From assembly GCA_963666515.2 (NCBI GenBank), contig OY762897.2, positions 32,001 through 96,000 of the forward strand: a stretch of DNA of 64,000 bases, given 5' to 3'. The translations under genes and the position numbers were made by a program. The stretch comes from Candidatus Binatia bacterium (lineage in GTDB: Bacteria > Desulfobacterota > Binatia > UBA9968 > JAJDTQ01). Position 1 is the stretch's first letter. Each line of letters starts with the position of its first letter. The notes below the pieces were generated by a model that saw only the letters and a program-made list of their open reading frames with translations, did not search any database and had not been told where the DNA came from. Of this stretch, positions 21,451 through 29,284 are shown in pieces.

Positions 21451-21537
21451 AGTGCTTGGTTTGGTTCCAGTAACTCGCGGGACGTAAACCGGCAATGCGC
21501 GAGGTTCGTCAAAGGACGGGCTTTCTTGGAGACTCTG

Positions 21538-24500
21538 ATGCCGTTTTCTCCCGGCCAGATCGTATGCTTGGCGTCCAACCCATCTGTTACGGGAGCCGTC
21601 GTCGACATCGTGGCAGGATCGTCCGAAGACTCCGTCAGGGTTTTTGTCAACGGCGATATTCGGACGTATTTCGCCTCTCAATTACAGGTTGCTGATCCAG
21701 CGGACCACGCAACGCCTCTGTCTGCAAGGCACTTTCAGGCCCGCCTGACCGCCCTGCAAATACGCCATCCCAACCTCTCGACGCTGTATTCGCTCAATGC
21801 CGCCCGTGTCGATTTCATCCCCTATCAGTTCCGTCCGGTGCTGAGATTCATCCGTTCCGACCGTCCGCGCTTGCTGATAGCCGATGGCGTGGGGGTGGGC
21901 AAAACCATCGAGGCCGGGCTGATTCTCAGGGAGTTGCAGGCTCGGCGGGAGGTCAAGTCCGTTCTCATCGTGTGTCCCCGTCCGCTCGTGACCGAGCGTA
22001 AATGGGAACTGGAGATGAAACGCTTTGACGAAAGGTTTACCCATTTGGACGGTGCAACATTGCGATACTGCATCAACGAAATGCACCTTGAGGGCGAATG
22101 GCCCGACCAGCATCGGAAAACGATCCTTCCGTATTCGCTGTTCGACGAGGCGCTTCTGTACGGTCCCGGCGGCAAAAAAAGCCGGAAACGACAACGCGGC
22201 AATGGTCTTTTGGATCTGGATCCGCCCCCGCGCTTCGACCTCGTCATCGTGGACGAAGCCCACCACATCCGCAATCCGGACACCCATAGGCACGCGGCGG
22301 TACGGTTTTTCTGTGAACATGCCGAAGCAGCGGTCTTTCTTACTGCCACCCCTGTTCAGCTCGACAGCCACGACCTTTTCGTGTTGTTGAACGTGTTGCG
22401 TCCCGATCTCGTACTGGATCAGGCCAGCTTCGAGCACATGGCGGAGCCGAACCCGTTCATCAACCAGGCCGTGCACCATGCCCGTACGCAAGGGCAAGGT
22501 TGGACGGGGCGCGCGACGGCCGCCCTTGAACAGGCAGCCGCCACCGCCTGGGGCCAAGCGATACTCAGGGACAATCCCGAATTCGGGCGGATCAGGGACA
22601 GGCTTGCCAAGGGGAGCGTCGCTGCCGACGAGAGGGTTCAATTCATCACCGACATGGAAGCCTTGCATACGTTTTCGGGCATTATCAACCGTACGCGTCG
22701 GCGCGATATCGGCGCGTTCACCATTCGGAAGCCGGAAACGTTCAAGGTTGCATTCACGCCCGACCAACAACGGCTTCATGACGAGTTGCTCCGTGTTCAG
22801 GCCGAGATATTCAGCCGGTTGCATCCAAGCGCCAACGTCAAGTTCATGATGACCACGATTCGACGGCAGGCTGCGAGTTGCCTTTATGGACTTGCTCCCT
22901 TCCTCACGGATATCCTGAATCGTCATCTCGATGAACTGGAATGGGAGGAGGTCGACGATACGGGTACGGTTCCGTGGAGCGATGTCAACGGCCCAATCCG
23001 CGCGCAGATCGAAACCATTCTGGAGCACGCCCGCAACCTTGACCCCGAAGACCCGAAACTTGAGACGTTGCGTAAAATCATCCGGGATAAGCAGGCCCTG
23101 CCTAACAACAGGATCATGCTGTTCAGCAGCTTTCGGCACACGCTTGCCTATCTGAACGGACGTCTCAGAGAGGATGGTATCCGCGCTGGAATGATTCACG
23201 GTGGTACGCCGGACGACGAACGTGTGGTACTGCGCAACCGCTTCGAGAAGCCACGTGAAGACCGTGACGCCCTTGATGTCCTGCTGTTCTCGGAGGTTGG
23301 TTGTGAAGGTTTGGACTACCAGTTCTGCGACTGCATCGTGAACTACGACCTGCCATGGAATCCCATGCGAATCGAGCAGCGCATCGGCCGTATCGACCGT
23401 AAGGGTCAGCGGAGCGAAAGCGTTGCCATCGTCAACCTGATTATCCCCGGAACGGTCGATGCGGACATTTACGAGCGCTGCCTTGTCCGCATCGGCGTGT
23501 TCGAGAATGCCTTGGGGGGCAGCGAGGCGATACTTGGCGACATCTCCACCGAAATCAAGAATATCGCCGAAAACTATTCCCTTAGTGAGGTAGACCGCCG
23601 GGAGAAACTGCAACAGTTGGCGGACAACAAGATTCGGTTGGTACAGGAACAGGAAAGGCTCGAGGAGCAGCAGTCGGAGCTCTTCGGTATTCGTCTGCCG
23701 GAAGATCAGATGAAGCAGGAGATCGAGGACGCATCGAGTTTCTGGCTGTCTCCGTCGTCGCTCCGCAAGCTGGTCACGGTGTATCTGCAAGATACCTGCG
23801 GGACGGCGCAGGAGTTCATCCTTGGCGAGAAATCCCTTAAAACATTGCGCCTTTCCCAAGATGCCCGGAATCACATGCTGCGTGACTTTCAGCAGCTCTC
23901 TGGACGGAGGAATACACCTGCCTATCGCGCCTGGGAAACTTGGTTAAAGGGAAGTGACCCACACTTGTCCATCACCTTCGATGCGGATTGCGCGAGCCAG
24001 AATCCACGAGTCACCTTCATCATGCCGCTGCACCCGCTCGTCATCCAGGCCGCCGGATCGCTTGTCGCAAAGCGGGTGGTCAGGACTACATTGAAGGCCA
24101 AGACTGACCGAATGCCTGCAGGGCGCTACGAGTTCGCCGTCTACCAATGGCAGTTCCACGGTATCCGGGAAGATCTGGTGCTCAAGCCGATTGCTGCATC
24201 GCGGGTTCTGACACCAGACCTTGGTCGTTTGCTTGAGAATGCGGTGGATGTCGAGCCGGACAGATGCGACAGTGTGGCTACCGAGTGGGACGAGTTGGAT
24301 GGACGGCACCACGACCTCTGGTCCGAGGCCCGTAGACAGCATCAACAACGGACTCGGGAACTCGCAGCGTACCGAAGGGAGAGCTTGGCCACCAGCCATC
24401 ACGCGCGCTTGGCGCTTCTAAGAGATCAACACCGAACCGCCGGCGACGACAATATCCGACGAATGCGTCAGTCGCAGATCGATTCTGCCGAGGCGGACTA

Positions 24501-24597
24501 CAATCGACGTTGCCGGGAGTTGGATTCGGCCATCGAGAGAGCGGATGTTGTCGCCGAGCCCGTGGCGTATGGGATACTGTATATTGAGCTATATTGA
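21538..24597 (+). CDS. SNF2/RapA-DrmD-like superfamily 2 helicase/translocase
   Basis: LIADGVGVGKTIEAG (I), DEAHH (II), LTATP (III), EVGCEGLDYQ (V) and YDLPWNPMRIEQRIGRIDRKGQ (VI). GGAG RBS before ATG 21538. Confidence 0.92.
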   Translation: MPFSPGQIVCLASNPSVTGAVVDIVAGSSEDSVRVFVNGDIRTYFASQLQVADPADHATPLSARHFQARLTALQIRHPNLSTLYSLNAARVDFIPYQFRPVLRFIRSDRPRLLIADGVGVGKTIEAGLILRELQARREVKSVLIVCPRPLVTERKWELEMKRFDERFTHLDGATLRYCINEMHLEGEWPDQHRKTILPYSLFDEALLYGPGGKKSRKRQRGNGLLDLDPPPRFDLVIVDEAHHIRNPDTHRHAAVRFFCEHAEAAVFLTATPVQLDSHDLFVLLNVLRPDLVLDQASFEHMAEPNPFINQAVHHARTQGQGWTGRATAALEQAAATAWGQAILRDNPEFGRIRDRLAKGSVAADERVQFITDMEALHTFSGIINRTRRRDIGAFTIRKPETFKVAFTPDQQRLHDELLRVQAEIFSRLHPSANVKFMMTTIRRQAASCLYGLAPFLTDILNRHLDELEWEEVDDTGTVPWSDVNGPIRAQIETILEHARNLDPEDPKLETLRKIIRDKQALPNNRIMLFSSFRHTLAYLNGRLREDGIRAGMIHGGTPDDERVVLRNRFEKPREDRDALDVLLFSEVGCEGLDYQFCDCIVNYDLPWNPMRIEQRIGRIDRKGQRSESVAIVNLIIPGTVDADIYERCLVRIGVFENALGGSEAILGDISTEIKNIAENYSLSEVDRREKLQQLADNKIRLVQEQERLEEQQSELFGIRLPEDQMKQEIEDASSFWLSPSSLRKLVTVYLQDTCGTAQEFILGEKSLKTLRLSQDARNHMLRDFQQLSGRRNTPAYRAWETWLKGSDPHLSITFDADCASQNPRVTFIMPLHPLVIQAAGSLVAKRVVRTTLKAKTDRMPAGRYEFAVYQWQFHGIREDLVLKPIAASRVLTPDLGRLLENAVDVEPDRCDSVATEWDELDGRHHDLWSEARRQHQQRTRELAAYRRESLATSHHARLALLRDQHRTAGDDNIRRMRQSQIDSAEADYNRRCRELDSAIERADVVAEPVAYGILYIELY

Positions 24598-24615: not shown

Positions 24616-27600
24616 ATGAATCTCGAAGAATTACGACAGAGACGCCTGAAATGGGTGGAAGCGAATCGCGAAAACGACTTTGAAGACGGTATCAGAGCCC
24701 TTCTCACGGACCTCTATCCGGACAATGCACATTTTATTTACGAGCTTCTTCAGAATGCTGAGGATGCCCAGGCAACGGCAGTTCGCTTCGTCCTCAAGCA
24801 GGACGGCGTTGAATTTGAGCACGACGGGAAGCTGTTTTCGATCCAGGACGTAAAGGACATTACAAGTATCGGAAATAGCGCAAAGAAAGACGATCCGACC
24901 AGCATCGGCAAGTTCGGGATCGGTTTCAAGGCCGTGTTTGCCTATACGACGACGCCGGAAATCGCATCTGGTCAATTTCATTTTCGCCTCCGTGACCTGG
25001 TGGTGCCAGAAACAGAGGGATTGGCGCCGCATCCACCTGATGGAGAAAAGACCCTGTTCGTCTTTCCTTTTAATAACCCTGCAAAGTCGCCCGAAAAGGC
25101 CCGTGATGAGATTGAGAGAAACCTCCGGCAGTTGGACGAATACGCCCTCCTTTTTCTGAAGAGTATCAAGAAAATAGAGTACCAGTTGCCCGATTCGTCC
25201 CAGGGGTCTCTGAGGCGGAAGGAACCAAAAGGTGACCGGATTGAAATTTTCATCGAGCACCCTGAAGAAGCAGGGTCGAGTTCACGTTCATTTCTCCGGT
25301 TCGACGGGTCCGTTGAAGTCGATGATGAGGACGGCGAACCCAAGGTGTGCCGCATTGCCGTTGCTTTCGGCTTGGAACGGAGCCAGGACCCGGAAGCGAA
25401 ACGGTCCGGCGGCAAGAGAAAACCACGGGTAGGCCGTTGGAAGATAGCGCCGTTGGAGCCGGGGAAGGTTTGCATCTATTTCCCTGCGGAAAAGGAAACA
25501 TCCAATCTTCGGTTTGCGTTGCACGCGCCTTTTGCCTCGACCGTTGCGCGCGACAGCGTGCGCGATTGCGCAGCGAACGATGCCTTGCGGGATCACTTGA
25601 CGGATCTCATCGCGGAGTCAATGACCAACCTGCGCGATCAGGATTTGTTGACGGTGAGCTTTCTTGCGACGTTACCCAACGACAAGGACAATTTGCCTCC
25701 ATTCTACAAGCCGATCTTGGAAAAGCTGGTCGAGGTGTTCCAGAGCCAGAAGCTTACACCGATGAAGGATGGCAGTCACGAGGTCGCAAATGGGGTATTT
25801 AGAGGTTCCAGGCAGCTATCCGACCTCATAGGTGATGAGGATTTGGCGACAATCCTCGGACAGGACGATTATTGCCCGCCGATGTGGATCGCCAATCCCC
25901 CTCAACAACACCAGCGTGAAGACAACTTTCTTTCCCTGCTGAGCGGCATCTCTGAATGGACGAGGGAAGATCTCGTCCAGCGGCTGTCCACTCGACCGGA
26001 ACAGGTCGCCAAATGGCTGACGAACAAGTCGGCTCATTGGCACCGAAAACTCTACGCGTTCCTGGGTGACTTCTTGACAAGCGCGCCAAATCGTCGGGAG
26101 GAAGCAGATCGTAAACGCAAGCTGGAACAGCTCCCCGTGGTTCTCTGCAGCGATGGCGCGCACAGGGTCGGGCAGGAATGTTACTTCCCTGGCGACGAAG
26201 ACGAGGGCGACGACGGGTTCCCACGTGTGGCCAGACACACCTATTCTTCTGGCGACAATCCGCAAGAGCAGAGGAAGGCCCGTGAGTTTCTTGACGTTGT
26301 TGGGGTTGGTGAAGTCGACGAGGCTGAAAGGGTGAAGGCGATTCTGAAGGAGCGATATTCGGAGGGCTCAATCGAACCTCGCCAACAGGATATGGAGAGA
26401 TTCATCAGGCTCGTCGAAGGATACGAGCGGTGTGCGGACATGTTCCGGGAACATTGTATCTTTCAATTGGAAACAGGAGATTGGGGGAAGCCAAGCACGG
26501 TCTTTCTTGACTCACCCTATCGAGACACCGGCCTGACGGCTTACTATGAGATACTCGGTGAAGCTCAGGGAAGGAGACGGGCGCTCTCCACGAAGTATGA
26601 CGCGTTTGGCATAGAGCCAACACGGTTGGGGGAGTTTGCTGAGGCGGTAGGCGCTCAGACAGAGCTACGACCCAGCAAACAAAGGATTCCCCCTAGCCAT
26701 CCTGAAAGGCGCAGGCTAAGTGACGGAGGGGGATGGTCAGAGAAGTACGGAATAGATAAGGACTACGATATCCCGGAGTTTGACGTGCTGTTGGGGCAGC
26801 CCAGCTTGGACAGGTCGAGGTTAATCTGGCAAACGATGACAGAACTGCCTGGTGCGTGTCTGAAAGCGGAGTATCGGTCCAATAGCTGGCATGCCTCGAA
26901 GGTTGCCGAGTCCACGCTTGTCCACAAGCTCAGAAGGCGCGAGTGGGTTCCGCAAACACAGGACGGCGGAGAGAGCATCCGTTTCGTGACGCCTGCTGAA
27001 GCCGTTTCTGACGGTCTCCTTAAGGGCTTTGCATTCGACCCGGGAGTGGAATGGCTGGAAGCAATCGAGTTTGGAAAGTCTCGACGAGATCGAGAGAAGG
27101 GTGAACGTCAGAGAAAAGAACAGTCTGCCCAAGACTTTCAGCGACAAAGCGAGGCATCTGAGGTGTTGGGGTTTCGGAGCGTTGAAGACGCGCTAGAGTT
27201 GGCACAGATGTTGCGTCAAGATCCTGGGATAGTGGAGCGATTGAAGAAAGACAAGCAGAAACCGCCATTTCCTGAAAGGGTGGCCCGTAACGCCGGTCGT
27301 GCGCGGGCACGGCTCATTGAAGATGTCGCTAGCCGTCCCGAGAAGGAATACGGTACGCGACCCAGAAGCGTGCGGGTCACAAGGAACGAGATCGATCCCG
27401 ATACCTGGTTGAGGAACCAGTACACGAACGAGGATGGACAGATGGTCTGCCAGATTTGCAAAGACGCAATGCCGTTCATGAAACGGGACGGCGAGCACTA
27501 CTTCGAGGCGGTGGAAGCCTTGTCCAGAGATTATTTTCCCAAGGAGCACGAAGAACAATTTCTGGCCCTGTGCCCACTTTGTGCCGCGATGTACAAGGAA

Positions 27601-27855
27601 TTCGTCAAGCGCGACGAAGATGTCATGAAACGTCTGTATGAGTGGTTGAAGGATTCAGATGAGCCTGAACTGCCACTGACGTTGGGACAATGGAGTGCGA
27701 GTCTCCGGTTCGTGGAAACTCACCGGCAGCGCCTGAAGGCGATCTTGGCCGTCGTGGACCACGGTGACGCGTGGACCGTGCAAGATGAAAACGATCTGAC
27801 CACTGCCTCCTTGCGGTACGCGGAAGGGCGCTACCCGGAGGAGGACGTTGTTTAA
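24616..27855 (+). CDS. Sacsin/NOV-like GHKL ATPase with a C-terminal Zn-binding HNH-like domain
   Basis: IYELLQNAEDA, EHDG and SIGNSAK...IGKFGIGFKAVF, plus LHAPF...RD transducer-like segment. The C-terminus reads CQIC...YFEAVE...LALCPLC. Confidence 0.85.
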   Translation: MNLEELRQRRLKWVEANRENDFEDGIRALLTDLYPDNAHFIYELLQNAEDAQATAVRFVLKQDGVEFEHDGKLFSIQDVKDITSIGNSAKKDDPTSIGKFGIGFKAVFAYTTTPEIASGQFHFRLRDLVVPETEGLAPHPPDGEKTLFVFPFNNPAKSPEKARDEIERNLRQLDEYALLFLKSIKKIEYQLPDSSQGSLRRKEPKGDRIEIFIEHPEEAGSSSRSFLRFDGSVEVDDEDGEPKVCRIAVAFGLERSQDPEAKRSGGKRKPRVGRWKIAPLEPGKVCIYFPAEKETSNLRFALHAPFASTVARDSVRDCAANDALRDHLTDLIAESMTNLRDQDLLTVSFLATLPNDKDNLPPFYKPILEKLVEVFQSQKLTPMKDGSHEVANGVFRGSRQLSDLIGDEDLATILGQDDYCPPMWIANPPQQHQREDNFLSLLSGISEWTREDLVQRLSTRPEQVAKWLTNKSAHWHRKLYAFLGDFLTSAPNRREEADRKRKLEQLPVVLCSDGAHRVGQECYFPGDEDEGDDGFPRVARHTYSSGDNPQEQRKAREFLDVVGVGEVDEAERVKAILKERYSEGSIEPRQQDMERFIRLVEGYERCADMFREHCIFQLETGDWGKPSTVFLDSPYRDTGLTAYYEILGEAQGRRRALSTKYDAFGIEPTRLGEFAEAVGAQTELRPSKQRIPPSHPERRRLSDGGGWSEKYGIDKDYDIPEFDVLLGQPSLDRSRLIWQTMTELPGACLKAEYRSNSWHASKVAESTLVHKLRRREWVPQTQDGGESIRFVTPAEAVSDGLLKGFAFDPGVEWLEAIEFGKSRRDREKGERQRKEQSAQDFQRQSEASEVLGFRSVEDALELAQMLRQDPGIVERLKKDKQKPPFPERVARNAGRARARLIEDVASRPEKEYGTRPRSVRVTRNEIDPDTWLRNQYTNEDGQMVCQICKDAMPFMKRDGEHYFEAVEALSRDYFPKEHEEQFLALCPLCAAMYKEFVKRDEDVMKRLYEWLKDSDEPELPLTLGQWSASLRFVETHRQRLKAILAVVDHGDAWTVQDENDLTTASLRYAEGRYPEEDVV

Positions 27856-28189
27856 GCCGAGCGATGTGGTAGTGCTCGACTTCCCTGGGGTGAGGGGTGT
27901 CAAACGCCGACCGGCAGTGGTCGTCTCCTCATCTGTTTACCATGCCTCCCGACCTGACGTGGTGGTCGGCCTGATAACGAGTCGCACCACCAGACTTGGC
28001 GCCATGGACTATGTCCTGCAGGATTGGGCACAGGCCGGCTTGAGGCTCCCTTCCGTTTTTAGGTGTTTTTTCGCCACGTTGCCCGGCACCCGGGCTAGCG
28101 TTGTCGGCGAACTGTCGGGCCGCGATTGGCGGGGCGTACGCGGGCGCGTAAGAGTCGCTCTGGCGCCATTGGCCACTCGGAAGCATTAG
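27848..28189 (+). CDS. PemK/MazF-family endoribonuclease toxin
   Basis: DVVVLDFP...KRRPAVVVSS...GLITS...AGLRLPS. TTG start with GGAGG RBS, overlapping the upstream stop by 8 nt. Confidence 0.85.
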   Translation: MFKPSDVVVLDFPGVRGVKRRPAVVVSSSVYHASRPDVVVGLITSRTTRLGAMDYVLQDWAQAGLRLPSVFRCFFATLPGTRASVVGELSGRDWRGVRGRVRVALAPLATRKH

Positions 28190-28267
28190 GGATGTCGCGT
28201 CCGTCAGGACATCGTACGCGGATGTGAGGACGGTGCGTAGTGGGGAAACTGCTGTTGCGGCGGGGAG

Positions 28268-29284
28268 TTACGCGAGCCGCGGCGCCACCTTCTCGGTGAG
28301 CAGACGGATGGAGTTGAGGACCTGTTCGTGGGGGATCTGGCCGCCGTGGTTCATGTCCAGGATCAGGCCGGTGAGTCCCGTGCGCTCGCGGAATTCCTCC
28401 AGGCGGTCGACCACCGACTCGGGCGAGCCGAAGATGACGCGGGTGTTCAGGAACTCGTCGTAATCGTTCATGAACCTCTGGGCCTGGGCGACGCGGTCGG
28501 CGGCGTTCATGGCCGTGGCTTCGGCGATGACCCGGTGCAGGTCGTGGACCACGCTGGCTCTCGGGGTCTCGCGCGCCAGCTCTTCCGACTCGGCGACGAA
28601 GACGGGCACGCGCACATGGATCTCGGGCGGGTCGGCGTGGCCGGCGGCCTGCCATTCGTCGCGGTAGATCTGCAAGCGGTCCTCGTAGTAGTCGCCCATG
28701 AACCACAACACCACGTTGAAACCGCGCCGGGCGGTGGCGGCGAAGCCTTCGGGGGTGCGGACGGCCATGTAGATGGGGGGATGGGGCTTCTGCAGCGGCC
28801 GGGGTGAAATGCTGACGTCGTGGTACGAGTAGTAGTCGCCCTCGAAGGAGAACGTGTCCTGGGTGAAGGCGCGCATGACGATCTCGAACGACTCGGTGAA
28901 ACGCGCGGTGCTTTCCGAGTAGGGGATGTTGAAGCCGTCGTAGAACTTGGGGATGCTGCTGCGGCCGACGCCGAAGTCGAACCGTCCGTGGCTCATGTGG
29001 TCGATGGAGGCCACCTCTTCGGCGATGCGCAGGGGGTTGCCCAAGGGCAGCACCTGCACCGCGGTGCCGATGCGCACGCGCTGCGTGCGCGACGCGATTG
29101 CGCCGGCCACAGCCATGGACGCCGACAGCACCGAGGCCTGGGGCCGGAAGTGGTGCTCGACGATCCAGATGGAGTCCAGGCCCATGGATTCGGCGGCATC
29201 CACCTGCGCGAACAGCTCGTCGAAGGCGAGCGTCTGTGTCTGATCCTTCCGAACGTGACAGTCAACCAGCAAGCCGAACTTCAT
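28268..29284 (-). CDS. LLM-class (luciferase-like) flavin-dependent oxidoreductase
   Basis: MKFGL, WIVEHHF, NPLRIAEE, GRFDFGVGR and PRPLQKPHPPI. Confidence 0.92.
   Translation of the reverse strand: MKFGLLVDCHVRKDQTQTLAFDELFAQVDAAESMGLDSIWIVEHHFRPQASVLSASMAVAGAIASRTQRVRIGTAVQVLPLGNPLRIAEEVASIDHMSHGRFDFGVGRSSIPKFYDGFNIPYSESTARFTESFEIVMRAFTQDTFSFEGDYYSYHDVSISPRPLQKPHPPIYMAVRTPEGFAATARRGFNVVLWFMGDYYEDRLQIYRDEWQAAGHADPPEIHVRVPVFVAESEELARETPRASVVHDLHRVIAEATAMNAADRVAQAQRFMNDYDEFLNTRVIFGSPESVVDRLEEFRERTGLTGLILDMNHGGQIPHEQVLNSIRLLTEKVAPRLA

Follow-up and report, generated by a model that had tools for sequence, protein, structure and literature searches.

This analysis concerns the junction between a large ATPase gene and a mazF-like gene in a 64,000-nucleotide (nt) stretch of contig OY762897.2 from a Candidatus Binatia bacterium (the window, meaning that whole stretch; positions are counted from its first letter). 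Judged by homology, the tail of the ATPase (TRANSPLANTED) is an antitoxin C-terminus, and a cassette made of this antitoxin C-terminal peptide, a ribosome-binding site and mazF has become fused, in frame, to the 3' end of the ATPase gene and been maintained there. On the strength of that homology and of a structure model of the complex, the tail probably binds and neutralises MazF, which would make the ATPase the cognate antitoxin of the toxin encoded directly downstream. The features of the junction are as follows.

24616-27855, + strand: open reading frame (ORF) of a GHKL ATPase, sacsin/Tiamat-like, 1079 residues.
24616-27750, + strand: ATPase core, residues 1-1045 (Pfam SACS 4.5e-21; NCBIfam P_loop_sacsin 8.7e-27).
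27358-27753, + strand: last folded ATPase domain, ~residues 915-1046, with an HNH-like zinc-ribbon fold and two CxxC pairs.
27751-27855, + strand: antitoxin-type tail, residues 1046-1079 and stop codon, with homology to standalone antitoxin C-termini.
27837-27845, + strand: Shine-Dalgarno-like GGAGGAGGA for mazF, inside the tail's P-E-E-D codons, read from the sequence.
27848-28189, + strand: PemK/MazF-like endoribonuclease toxin gene, 113 residues, TTG start, Pfam PemK_toxin.

Codon 1046 of the ATPase begins at 27751, and the first 8 nt of mazF overlap the 3' end of the ATPase gene, its stop codon (27853-27855) included. No separate antitoxin ORF lies between the two genes. Within the genome (4.67 Mb in 2 contigs, 98% complete), a profile of the tail gave a single match, the ATPase tail itself, and hence no other copy of a tail-type antitoxin; the genome likewise holds a single MazF of this kind, the next match standing at E 0.34. 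An initial annotation of this DNA had described MazF as lacking a separate antitoxin gene and as preceded by a tail of ~34 residues that contains the mazF ribosome-binding site and overlaps the mazF start; both statements agree with the missing intervening ORF, the sole genomic tail-profile match, the 8-nt overlap and the position of GGAGGAGGA within tail codons, and the tail sequence given there is identical to ATPase residues 1046-1079.

The fused frame is no assembly slip, because the same in-frame tail is present in one 99%-identical and three 85-88%-identical database proteins and because a 9789-nt contig from a different study spans 27500-28201 with 20 substitutions and zero gaps, so that frame and mazF are intact in an independent assembly. 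Contigs from two runs of one further study match the junction without differences and may be the source. Runs X1 and X2 yielded contigs of 715 and 4104 nt that are ~86% identical over the junction (27830-27930) and differ in their flanks; they represent additional, related tail-MazF modules that belong to other organisms in the samples concerned.

Relatives of the tail were collected with profile A2, which was built from ATPase tails only and run with HMMER against 1.84 billion cluster representatives (1.84e9). At E<=1e-3 it matched 114 proteins, and 16 still passed at E<=1e-10. Of these proteins 110 are 38-142 residues long, with the match at or near the C-terminus in almost all, and the four longer ones are P0116 (an ATPase), P0139 (293 residues, with an unrelated N-terminal part), P0151 (a 215-residue read-through product of ATPase end, tail and MazF start) and P0121. 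The last (1437 residues, 18 matched stretches), although the top match of the profile, is an unrelated repeat protein and was rejected as spurious. The tail is homologous to the C-terminal ~36-46 residues of standalone antitoxins of ~73 residues, whose N-terminal ~35 residues are helical. In BLASTP comparisons the 73-residue antitoxin P0124 aligned with the tailed ATPase P0008 from 'ILQ' through to the C-terminal residue (46 residues, 74% identical; E 7e-19), and with the window ATPase in the tail region only (E 7e-12). At the level of sequence this resemblance is well beyond chance, and the start of the alignment at 'ILQ' places the joint where '...TILQ' of the ATPase meets '...LILQ' of the antitoxin.

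Neither the tail nor the standalone proteins P0124 and P0370 matched any Pfam family at E<=1, and the best match of the tail profile in the PDB was to antibody chains (E 0.49). Four standalone antitoxins (L107, L087, L156 and L160) showed sub-threshold likeness to Unstab_antitox (PF09720; E 0.0095-0.041). A search for membership of the MazE/AbrB-SpoVT family returned no MazE/AbrB-type match for the tail or its standalone relatives; going by the structure model described below, the tail would work in the manner of a MazE tail without being a member of that family.

Scanning of metagenome contigs with the tail profile gave 393 pattern matches and 97 confirmed relatives, the best 80 of which were parsed with the exception of one locus (L121) that had no pattern match; a scan of viral contigs with the same profile gave 19 pattern matches, none confirmed. 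Stop to stop, 64 of the 79 motif ORFs measure at most 110 residues, 9 are cut by the contig start and 6 are longer, four of the latter having the usual internal start. A MazF homologue, 56-79% identical to that of the window, lies directly downstream in 66 of the 80 best loci; among the remainder, 6 contigs end within 90 nt of the ORF and 7 loci have room and no MazF match. In 44 loci the tblastn alignment starts with MazF residue 1, and every one of them has an overlap of exactly 8 nt; TTG stands at the MazF start position in 56 of 76 junctions, followed in 50 of these by F-[NSD]-P-[GA]-[DNE]. Together with the small size of 110 of the 114 profile matches, the presence of MazF downstream in 66 of 80 loci upholds the suggestion, made in the initial annotation, that the tail resembles the C-termini of small antitoxins found upstream of PemK-like toxins.

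Several loci depart from the usual pair. In L135 (2268-2350), L151 (104-200) and L081 (432-500) the antitoxin is intact, and MazF can be read for its first 10-20 residues before the frame breaks; the toxin has decayed here and the antitoxin has been retained. The motif ORF of L081 (100-429) is a DUF433 domain (Pfam 4e-24) ending in the same tail, that of L129 (2858-4102) is a 415-residue ORF of no family with the same ending, and proteins P0142 and P0188 (114 and 127 residues) carry the tail behind other N-termini. At least five unrelated N-terminal partners terminate in this peptide, namely the small helical antitoxin, the DUF433 domain, the 293-residue protein, the 415-residue protein and the ATPase, and by sequence comparison this putative toxin-binding peptide behaves as a portable module.

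On plasmid p4 of Planktothrix agardhii (L168; NZ_LR882956.1, 8472-9037) a 74-residue antitoxin, which bears the tail motif and is annotated as 'hypothetical protein', and its PemK/MazF toxin lie inside a type I restriction-modification operon, between the genes for the N-6 DNA methylase and the S subunit, with a DEAD/DEAH helicase further on. The layout recalls that of PrrC within EcoprrI. A Pfam scan of 50 ORFs neighbouring standalone pairs at 18 loci returned mostly housekeeping families and few defence-like neighbours, these being SduA_C (L087), Uma2 (L107 and L154), NACHT (L149) and PDDEXK_9 (L119).

The distribution of the tail among ATPases was determined from homologues of ATPase residues 760-1079; 695 proteins were found, and the best 120 were compared at their C-termini. 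Asking where ATPase homologues end, as the initial annotation had proposed, separated them into two groups: 97 stop within a few residues of a conserved '...FVETH..D.K.IL' motif, and 23 continue through a short variable linker into a conserved peptide, the tail. Its core reads W-[ST]-E-Q-D-Q-x-D-L-T, then S-L-x-Y-A, then Y-P-E-E, and eight residues are invariant in 20 aligned ATPase tails (W1053, D1057, D1060, S1065, Y1068, Y1073, P1074 and E1075 in window numbering). A tree of 112 full-length ATPases was made with FastTree after the tails had been cut off before alignment. By parsimony count the tail state changes 4 times on this 112-tip tree, against at least 15 times in each of 1000 label shuffles, a result that shows stable inheritance rather than function since related sequences share tail labels. 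Taken at the protein level, the tail is stably inherited across divergence to ~50-60% identity. With midpoint rooting the tailed ATPases in the 112-tip tree do not form one clade; gain versus loss of the tail depends on the root, and the tree has no established root. Three tailed proteins (P0101, P0112 and P0113), and P0116 with them, are 34-36% identical to the window ATPase overall and 57-62% over the C-terminal region, and sit on a long branch; their N- and C-terminal halves may have recombined, to judge from these identities.

The association of tail and MazF was followed in a scan of genomes with the ATPase alignment (one genome per GTDB species), which gave 558 relatives, the best 80 of which were kept. 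The ATPase C-terminal domain is present in 63 of these 80 loci, and 59 also have at least 500 nt downstream. One of the 59, L001 from a metagenome-assembled genome (MAG) of Candidatus Entotheonella, is tailed, and it is also the sole locus of the 80 with a MazF match at E<1e-3. Its MazF is 74% identical to that of the window and begins 5 nt short of where the aligned ATPase ORF ends, with the same junction and overlap as in the window. The other 58 loci are tailless, with C-terminal extensions of fewer than 30 residues and no MazF match at E<1e-3 anywhere in the locus. A tail on ATPase homologues that lack MazF, which the initial annotation named as evidence against an antitoxin role, does not occur in the DNA covered by these 59 loci. 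One tailless lineage nested among tailed ones (P0064, the ATPase of L011) is also without MazF.

Five tailed ATPases and MazF homologues are recorded on same-sized contigs, namely P0002/P0234 (7253 nt), P0008/P0250 (3,280,995 nt), P0029/P0344 (5709 nt), P0101/P0242 (9894 nt) and P0112/P0239 (121,547 nt); equal size means at best the same contig and not adjacency, the sizes refer to 90% clusters, and the pairs cover 5 of the 23 tailed ATPases. A second search for MazF homologues, with the L001 MazF as query, gave no further ATPase-MazF contig matches. The read-through product P0151, in which the ATPase end, the tail and the MazF start follow one another, is a further indirect case of tail and MazF together.

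The 113-residue ORF downstream of the ATPase is a member of the PemK_toxin family (PF02452; E 1e-7, 32.6 bits against a cut-off of 23.1). Of 640 MazF homologues, the best 120 are 65-93% identical to it, all but two of them have PF02452, and several homologues carry the source name 'mRNA interferase MazF'. The N-terminus M-F-x-P-x-D-V-V agrees with the homologues, and 32 positions, R21, P22 and T44 among them, are invariant across 31 sequences. In the PDB the best match of the MazF profile was M. tuberculosis MazF6 (E 2.9e-4), in which R21, P22 and T44 align with the K-R-R-P and I-T-S stretches. In MazF enzymes an Arg and a Thr/Ser at the positions equivalent to R21 and T44 are catalytic, and R21 and T44 may have this part in the window MazF. 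PADLOC and NCBIfam gave no match for the window MazF.

A complex of two MazF copies (31-row alignment) with a 44-residue tail segment (20-row alignment) was modelled, the combination of tail and MazF dimer that the initial annotation had put forward as a check. The interface score from aligned errors (ipSAE) was 0.89, 0.89 and 0.88, compared with 0.01 for the best of 3 controls. The mark set for this score is reached by 116 of 157 solved complexes and by 2 of 215 mismatched pairs, counts that hold roughly here because single-chain pairs and different alignments were used for the calibration. At least 86% of contacts recur between runs, and the predicted local distance difference test (pLDDT) value of the partner is at least 74. 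Positions 12-43 of the 44-residue segment contact both MazF copies in the model, the MazF contact residues include 19-22, 42-45 and 47 and so take in the invariant R21, P22 and T44, and all eight invariant tail residues fall within the predicted contact set. The model thereby supports binding of the tail across the MazF dimer, in line with the proposal that prompted the check.

An AlphaFold2 model of the whole ATPase (48-row alignment) reached a mean pLDDT of 80.7 and a predicted template modelling score (pTM) of 0.54. The folded body stops at ~residue 1048 and is followed by a hinge (1050-1053, pLDDT <50) and a low-confidence helix (1055-1072), the pattern that a peptide folding upon contact with its partner would be predicted to show. 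With Foldseek the N-terminal half of the ATPase matched Hsp90/TRAP1 (E 1.7e-9 and weaker) and the sacsin SR1 domain (5v46_A, E 2.7e-8). Residues 3-588 match PADLOC TmtA (Tiamat; 8.8e-58), the match being confined to that stretch.

A separate model of residues 691-1048 had a mean pLDDT of 89.3, and its last domain was compared with known structures. VIA-align placed it with EcoKMcrA (6ghc_B; Z 6.2, root-mean-square deviation (rmsd) 3.3, 87 aligned) and TagI (6ghs_A; Z 5.8, rmsd 3.8, 94 aligned), ahead of many Cas9, Cap5 and IscB HNH domains (Z 3.3-4.2), all HNH Z values being modest; Foldseek returned 6ghc_A at E 0.01 (prob 0.97). The invariant columns of the domain are C945, Q946, C948, C986 and P987, with C989 close to invariant; no His is invariant between the two cysteine pairs. 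The ATPase's own HNH-like domain looks catalytically poor, and, lacking an invariant histidine, it may bind DNA rather than cut it. A 2026 preprint (10.64898/2026.09.30.754977) describes, in its available text, 'Type IV' Tiamat-like proteins with helicase neighbours and an HNH-like fold lacking catalytic residues, and the last domain of the window ATPase fits this description.

The ATPase and mazF are the second and third of three co-directional genes that form a low-GC (guanine plus cytosine) island at ~21.5-28.2 kb of the window (GC 0.55-0.62 across the island against 0.66 in the flanks). Its first gene and its right boundary are the following.

21526-24597, + strand: SNF2-family helicase, DrmD-like, first island gene (Pfam Helicase_C 2.8e-19, SNF2-rel_dom 1.8e-15).
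28216-28268, no strand: right island edge, marked by a rise in GC and by variable DNA in the run X5 contig.

The helicase matched DrmD in PADLOC (2e-111) and scored 303 bits with NCBIfam DISARM_DrmD, below the cut-off of 610. The low-GC island consists of only three ORFs and is not assigned to DISARM, a statement about the island, since its neighbours were not scanned for DrmA/DrmB. Helicase and ATPase genes are 18 nt apart in the window, and in 69 of the 80 best genome loci the gene immediately before the ATPase, in the same orientation, encodes a homologue of the helicase, several of the other 11 loci being truncated contigs; the helicase-ATPase pair is the conserved core of the system. The two genes abut in most loci, and in L001 (4004-5001) and L011 (3356-5001) they are separated by ~1.0-1.6 kb, where an extra gene may have been inserted. 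In a contig from another study (run X5) 1824 other letters stand between 28216 and 28268, so the sequence immediately beyond mazF varies, which places the island edge there. Searches of the island flanks for att-like direct repeats and for inverted repeats gave only short, chance-like matches. Among 18 same-genus genomes no close ATPase orthologue was found, the best homologue being 38% identical and tailless; the island is an accessory element.

This arrangement would be accounted for if the 3' half of the gene for a small antitoxin, and with it the overlapping mazF, had been fused in frame to the 3' end of the ATPase gene in a two-gene system composed of an SNF2 helicase and a Tiamat-like ATPase. 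The helical N-terminal part of the antitoxin would have been replaced by the 1045-residue ATPase, and the C-terminal toxin-binding peptide, the internal ribosome-binding site and the 8-nt mazF overlap would have been kept. As predicted by the models, the tail would be held on a flexible hinge behind the last ATPase domain and would lie across the MazF dimer, covering the conserved R21/T44 region. MazF would then be parked inactive on the helicase-ATPase machine and freed when the machine is triggered, through a nucleotide-driven conformational change on sensing foreign DNA, or alternatively when it is disabled or degraded by a phage inhibitor or protease; the freed toxin would cleave RNA and arrest growth as a second, abortive-infection layer. 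Release of MazF as an effector in this way is the account we favour, tentatively and at somewhat less than an even chance. AAA-ATPase and Panacea antitoxins, PARIS and type II Gabija, compared below, are precedents that bear on it. That the ATPase is a sensor as well as an antitoxin, with nucleotide-driven clamp movement of the helicase-ATPase machine on foreign DNA or its inactivation by a phage freeing a 34-residue 'leash', itself the portable module, from the MazF dimer, is a possibility that we hold with more reserve.

Several points weigh against this account. What speaks for binding, toxicity and neutralisation is homology and a single structure model, and the success of that model may owe something to likeness with MazE-MazF complexes, which have been solved, although sequence likeness to PDB entries is low (MazF E 2.9e-4, tail best E 0.49). 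A protein of 1079 residues would be an unusual 'labile' antitoxin. Adjacency of tail and MazF is seen directly in DNA for 2 tailed ATPases (those of the window and L001), the other 21 being known as proteins only. For the tailless ATPase P0053 and for the MazF homologue P0337 the longest contig on record is 12002 nt, in both cases from the same source; should the two share a single contig, MazF would be able to occur together with a tailless ATPase and might then have its own antitoxin. Tail and MazF are absent from 97 of the 120 best ATPase homologues, whose systems work without them, so the core function does not depend on MazF.

The main rival accepts that the tail binds MazF and gives the pair no phage-sensing role: the module would be an addiction device that locks the integrity of the gene. 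Loss of the island, or a frameshift or nonsense mutation in the 3.2-kb ATPase gene, would remove the antitoxin, MazF would persist and the cells would be arrested; because the antidote is the very last part of the polypeptide, any break in the ATPase would remove it. Such a lock would suit a module descended from type II toxin-antitoxin pairs of the ordinary kind, whose neighbourhoods are mostly unrelated to defence, an island that is accessory (a close orthologue in 0 of 18 same-genus genomes, GC 0.55-0.62 against 0.66) and an ATPase whose best homologues need no MazF in 97 of 120 cases, and the Planktothrix plasmid pair inside its type I restriction-modification operon could equally serve stabilisation. 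A standalone pair would, however, stabilise the island equally well, yet the fusion has been kept to ~50-60% identity; the translational coupling, with its 8-nt overlap and weak TTG, means that early nonsense mutations would also cut new MazF synthesis; and the large ATPase is not obviously a short-lived antitoxin. None of these points is decisive, and we regard a lock without sensing as unlikely, short of dismissing it.

The other readings change what the tail itself is taken to be. If it were translated separately from an internal in-frame start, the cell would contain a small free antitoxin and the fusion would amount to overlapping frames only; in-frame Met codons ~70-90 residues before the C-terminus would indeed give a product of antitoxin size, but the same Met positions are equally conserved in tailless homologues, as parts of the ATPase fold, and the antitoxin homology starts only at 'ILQ', so that such a product would have an ATPase-derived N-terminus. 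The stop that follows '...TILQ' in tailless ATPases is missing in all 23 tailed ones, which makes read-through the conserved state, and no sigma-70-like promoter was found upstream of mazF in 27300-28500, a weak test for this organism; separate translation is very improbable. About equally improbable is that a single fusion left tail and MazF as decaying, functionless passengers. The loss of the tail from several ATPase lineages and the loci L135, L151 and L081, which keep the antitoxin beside a MazF reduced to a stump, would fit a relic, but eight tail positions are invariant in 20 tails and 32 MazF positions in 31 sequences, neither ORF is disrupted in the window, in L001 or in the independent contig (20 substitutions, no gaps), and tail and MazF are missing together, for example in L011. 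Of the two possibilities raised in the initial annotation, an ATPase that acts as the antitoxin is accordingly preferred to a recent accidental remnant, given a fusion kept in 23 of 120 homologues, invariant tail residues that lie in the predicted interface and the co-occurrence of tail and MazF. That the tail is an element intrinsic to the ATPase, used in oligomerisation or helicase docking and adjacent to mazF by coincidence, finds a parallel in another Tiamat subtype whose C-terminal extensions are predicted to dock the helicase (available text of preprint 10.64898/2026.09.30.754977). This explanation is already contradicted, since 97 of the 120 best homologues share the helicase partner and have no tail, the tail is homologous to antitoxin C-termini, and it occurs with MazF only; we consider it next to impossible.

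The arrangement offers a testable handle on how two-gene systems of a Tiamat-like ATPase and an SNF2 helicase might signal to effectors; loss of the 34 residues, or exchange of one Trp, would be predicted to uncouple MazF. It indicates that evolution can transfer the neutralising peptide of a toxin, ribosome-binding site and toxin gene included, to the C-terminus of a large enzyme in one cassette. An antitoxin family without annotation emerges as well, represented by 114 clusters at E<=1e-3, as does the MazF subfamily that is cognate to it. Programs that look for small antitoxin genes miss the tail-fused form, as PADLOC and NCBIfam are blank for this MazF and the standalone antitoxin is annotated 'hypothetical'. 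Were MazF released from the tether as an effector, RNA-level abortive infection would have been added to a system whose HNH-like domain looks catalytically poor. Were the ATPase to act as sensor and antitoxin in one, a DNA-surveillance complex would be wired directly to an RNA-cleaving abortive-infection effector, and the antidotes of many 'orphan' toxins could be hidden as tails of large neighbouring genes. Were the module a lock, a defence gene would police its own reading frame.

Compared with type II systems of the MazEF/PemIK kind, in which MazE-type tails bind across the toxin dimer, the window shares an RNase toxin of the PemK/MazF fold, an antidote encoded directly upstream with overlapping, coupled translation, and an acidic, Trp-containing C-terminal peptide that is here predicted to lie across the dimer. 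The protein antitoxin is adjacent and would be co-translated as in that class, the antitoxin-homologous peptide ending 8 nt past the mazF start. The window differs in that no Pfam antitoxin family includes its peptide and no PDB entry is related to it by sequence, and in that a 1045-residue GHKL ATPase replaces the small N-terminal part, so that the classical DNA-binding or autoregulating domain is missing. With the family of ~73-residue standalone antitoxins and their MazF it has in common the tail (74% over 46 residues), the MazF subfamily (56-79%), the 8-nt overlap and the TTG start; those antitoxins have a short helical N-terminus with sub-threshold Unstab_antitox likeness in place of the ATPase.

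In PrrC-EcoprrI a latent RNA-directed nuclease is held by a restriction complex and freed on a phage cue. In PARIS the AriA ATPase sequesters the AriB nuclease, which is freed on a phage cue, as summarised in preprint 10.64898/2026.09.30.754977. The window system would be analogous to both in the logic of a latent nuclease restrained by a large defence complex; the proteins are unrelated, and the restraint in the window would be a short transplanted antitoxin peptide. Pfam, NCBIfam and fold searches identified the window ATPase as GHKL and found no AAA family; PARIS and the AAA-ATPase antitoxins (AriA-like, NetFlax D29) have an ABC/AAA-type fold. AAA-ATPase antitoxins paired with the MazF-fold toxin AarT, and Panacea (PanA) antitoxins with a separate neutralising element, are described in the available part of Ernits et al. 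2023 (PMC10440598). As far as that account goes, AarT/Panacea (NetFlax) and the window share a large NTPase or accessory domain as antitoxin of a toxin with an mRNA-interferase fold and a neutralising element separable from the proposed sensory domain, and they differ in that the window ATPase is of the GHKL/sacsin type and not AAA/ABC, its element is borrowed from a small antitoxin, and it stands in a helicase-ATPase operon.

Tiamat-like GHKL ATPases, as presented in the available text of the same preprint (10.64898/2026.09.30.754977), have an N-terminal sacsin/Hsp90-like ATPase and a Swi/Snf-type helicase neighbour in common with the window, and Pfam, NCBIfam, PADLOC and Foldseek all recognise the N-terminal GHKL ATPase of TmtA here. 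Canonical Tiamat is there a single gene with a PD-(D/E)xK (DUF3883) nuclease; the window ATPase gave no Pfam DUF3883 match at its C-terminus, and its TmtA match stops at residue 588. With no DUF3883 and with an HNH-like last domain it is therefore called 'Tiamat-like' and not Tiamat. The term 'MazF' is absent from the main text of that preprint. In type II Gabija, going by the available part of Liu et al. 2026 (PMC13069673), the MazF-like GajC is the likely effector beside a helicase, in a system validated against phage; it shares with the window the recruitment of a MazF-like protein to a helicase-containing defence system, and differs in that GajC has a split MazF-like domain, the helicase is of the UvrD type, there is no GHKL ATPase, and that part of the paper describes no antitoxin peptide. 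Among open-access papers and bioRxiv main texts, none was found that links MazF/PemK with GHKL, sacsin, MORC or Tiamat ATPases. The elements of the arrangement (type II toxin-antitoxin pair, multidomain antitoxin, ATPase-restrained nuclease) are thus known; what is new is their combination, an antitoxin peptide of an unannotated family grafted on a Tiamat-like GHKL ATPase beside an SNF2 helicase.

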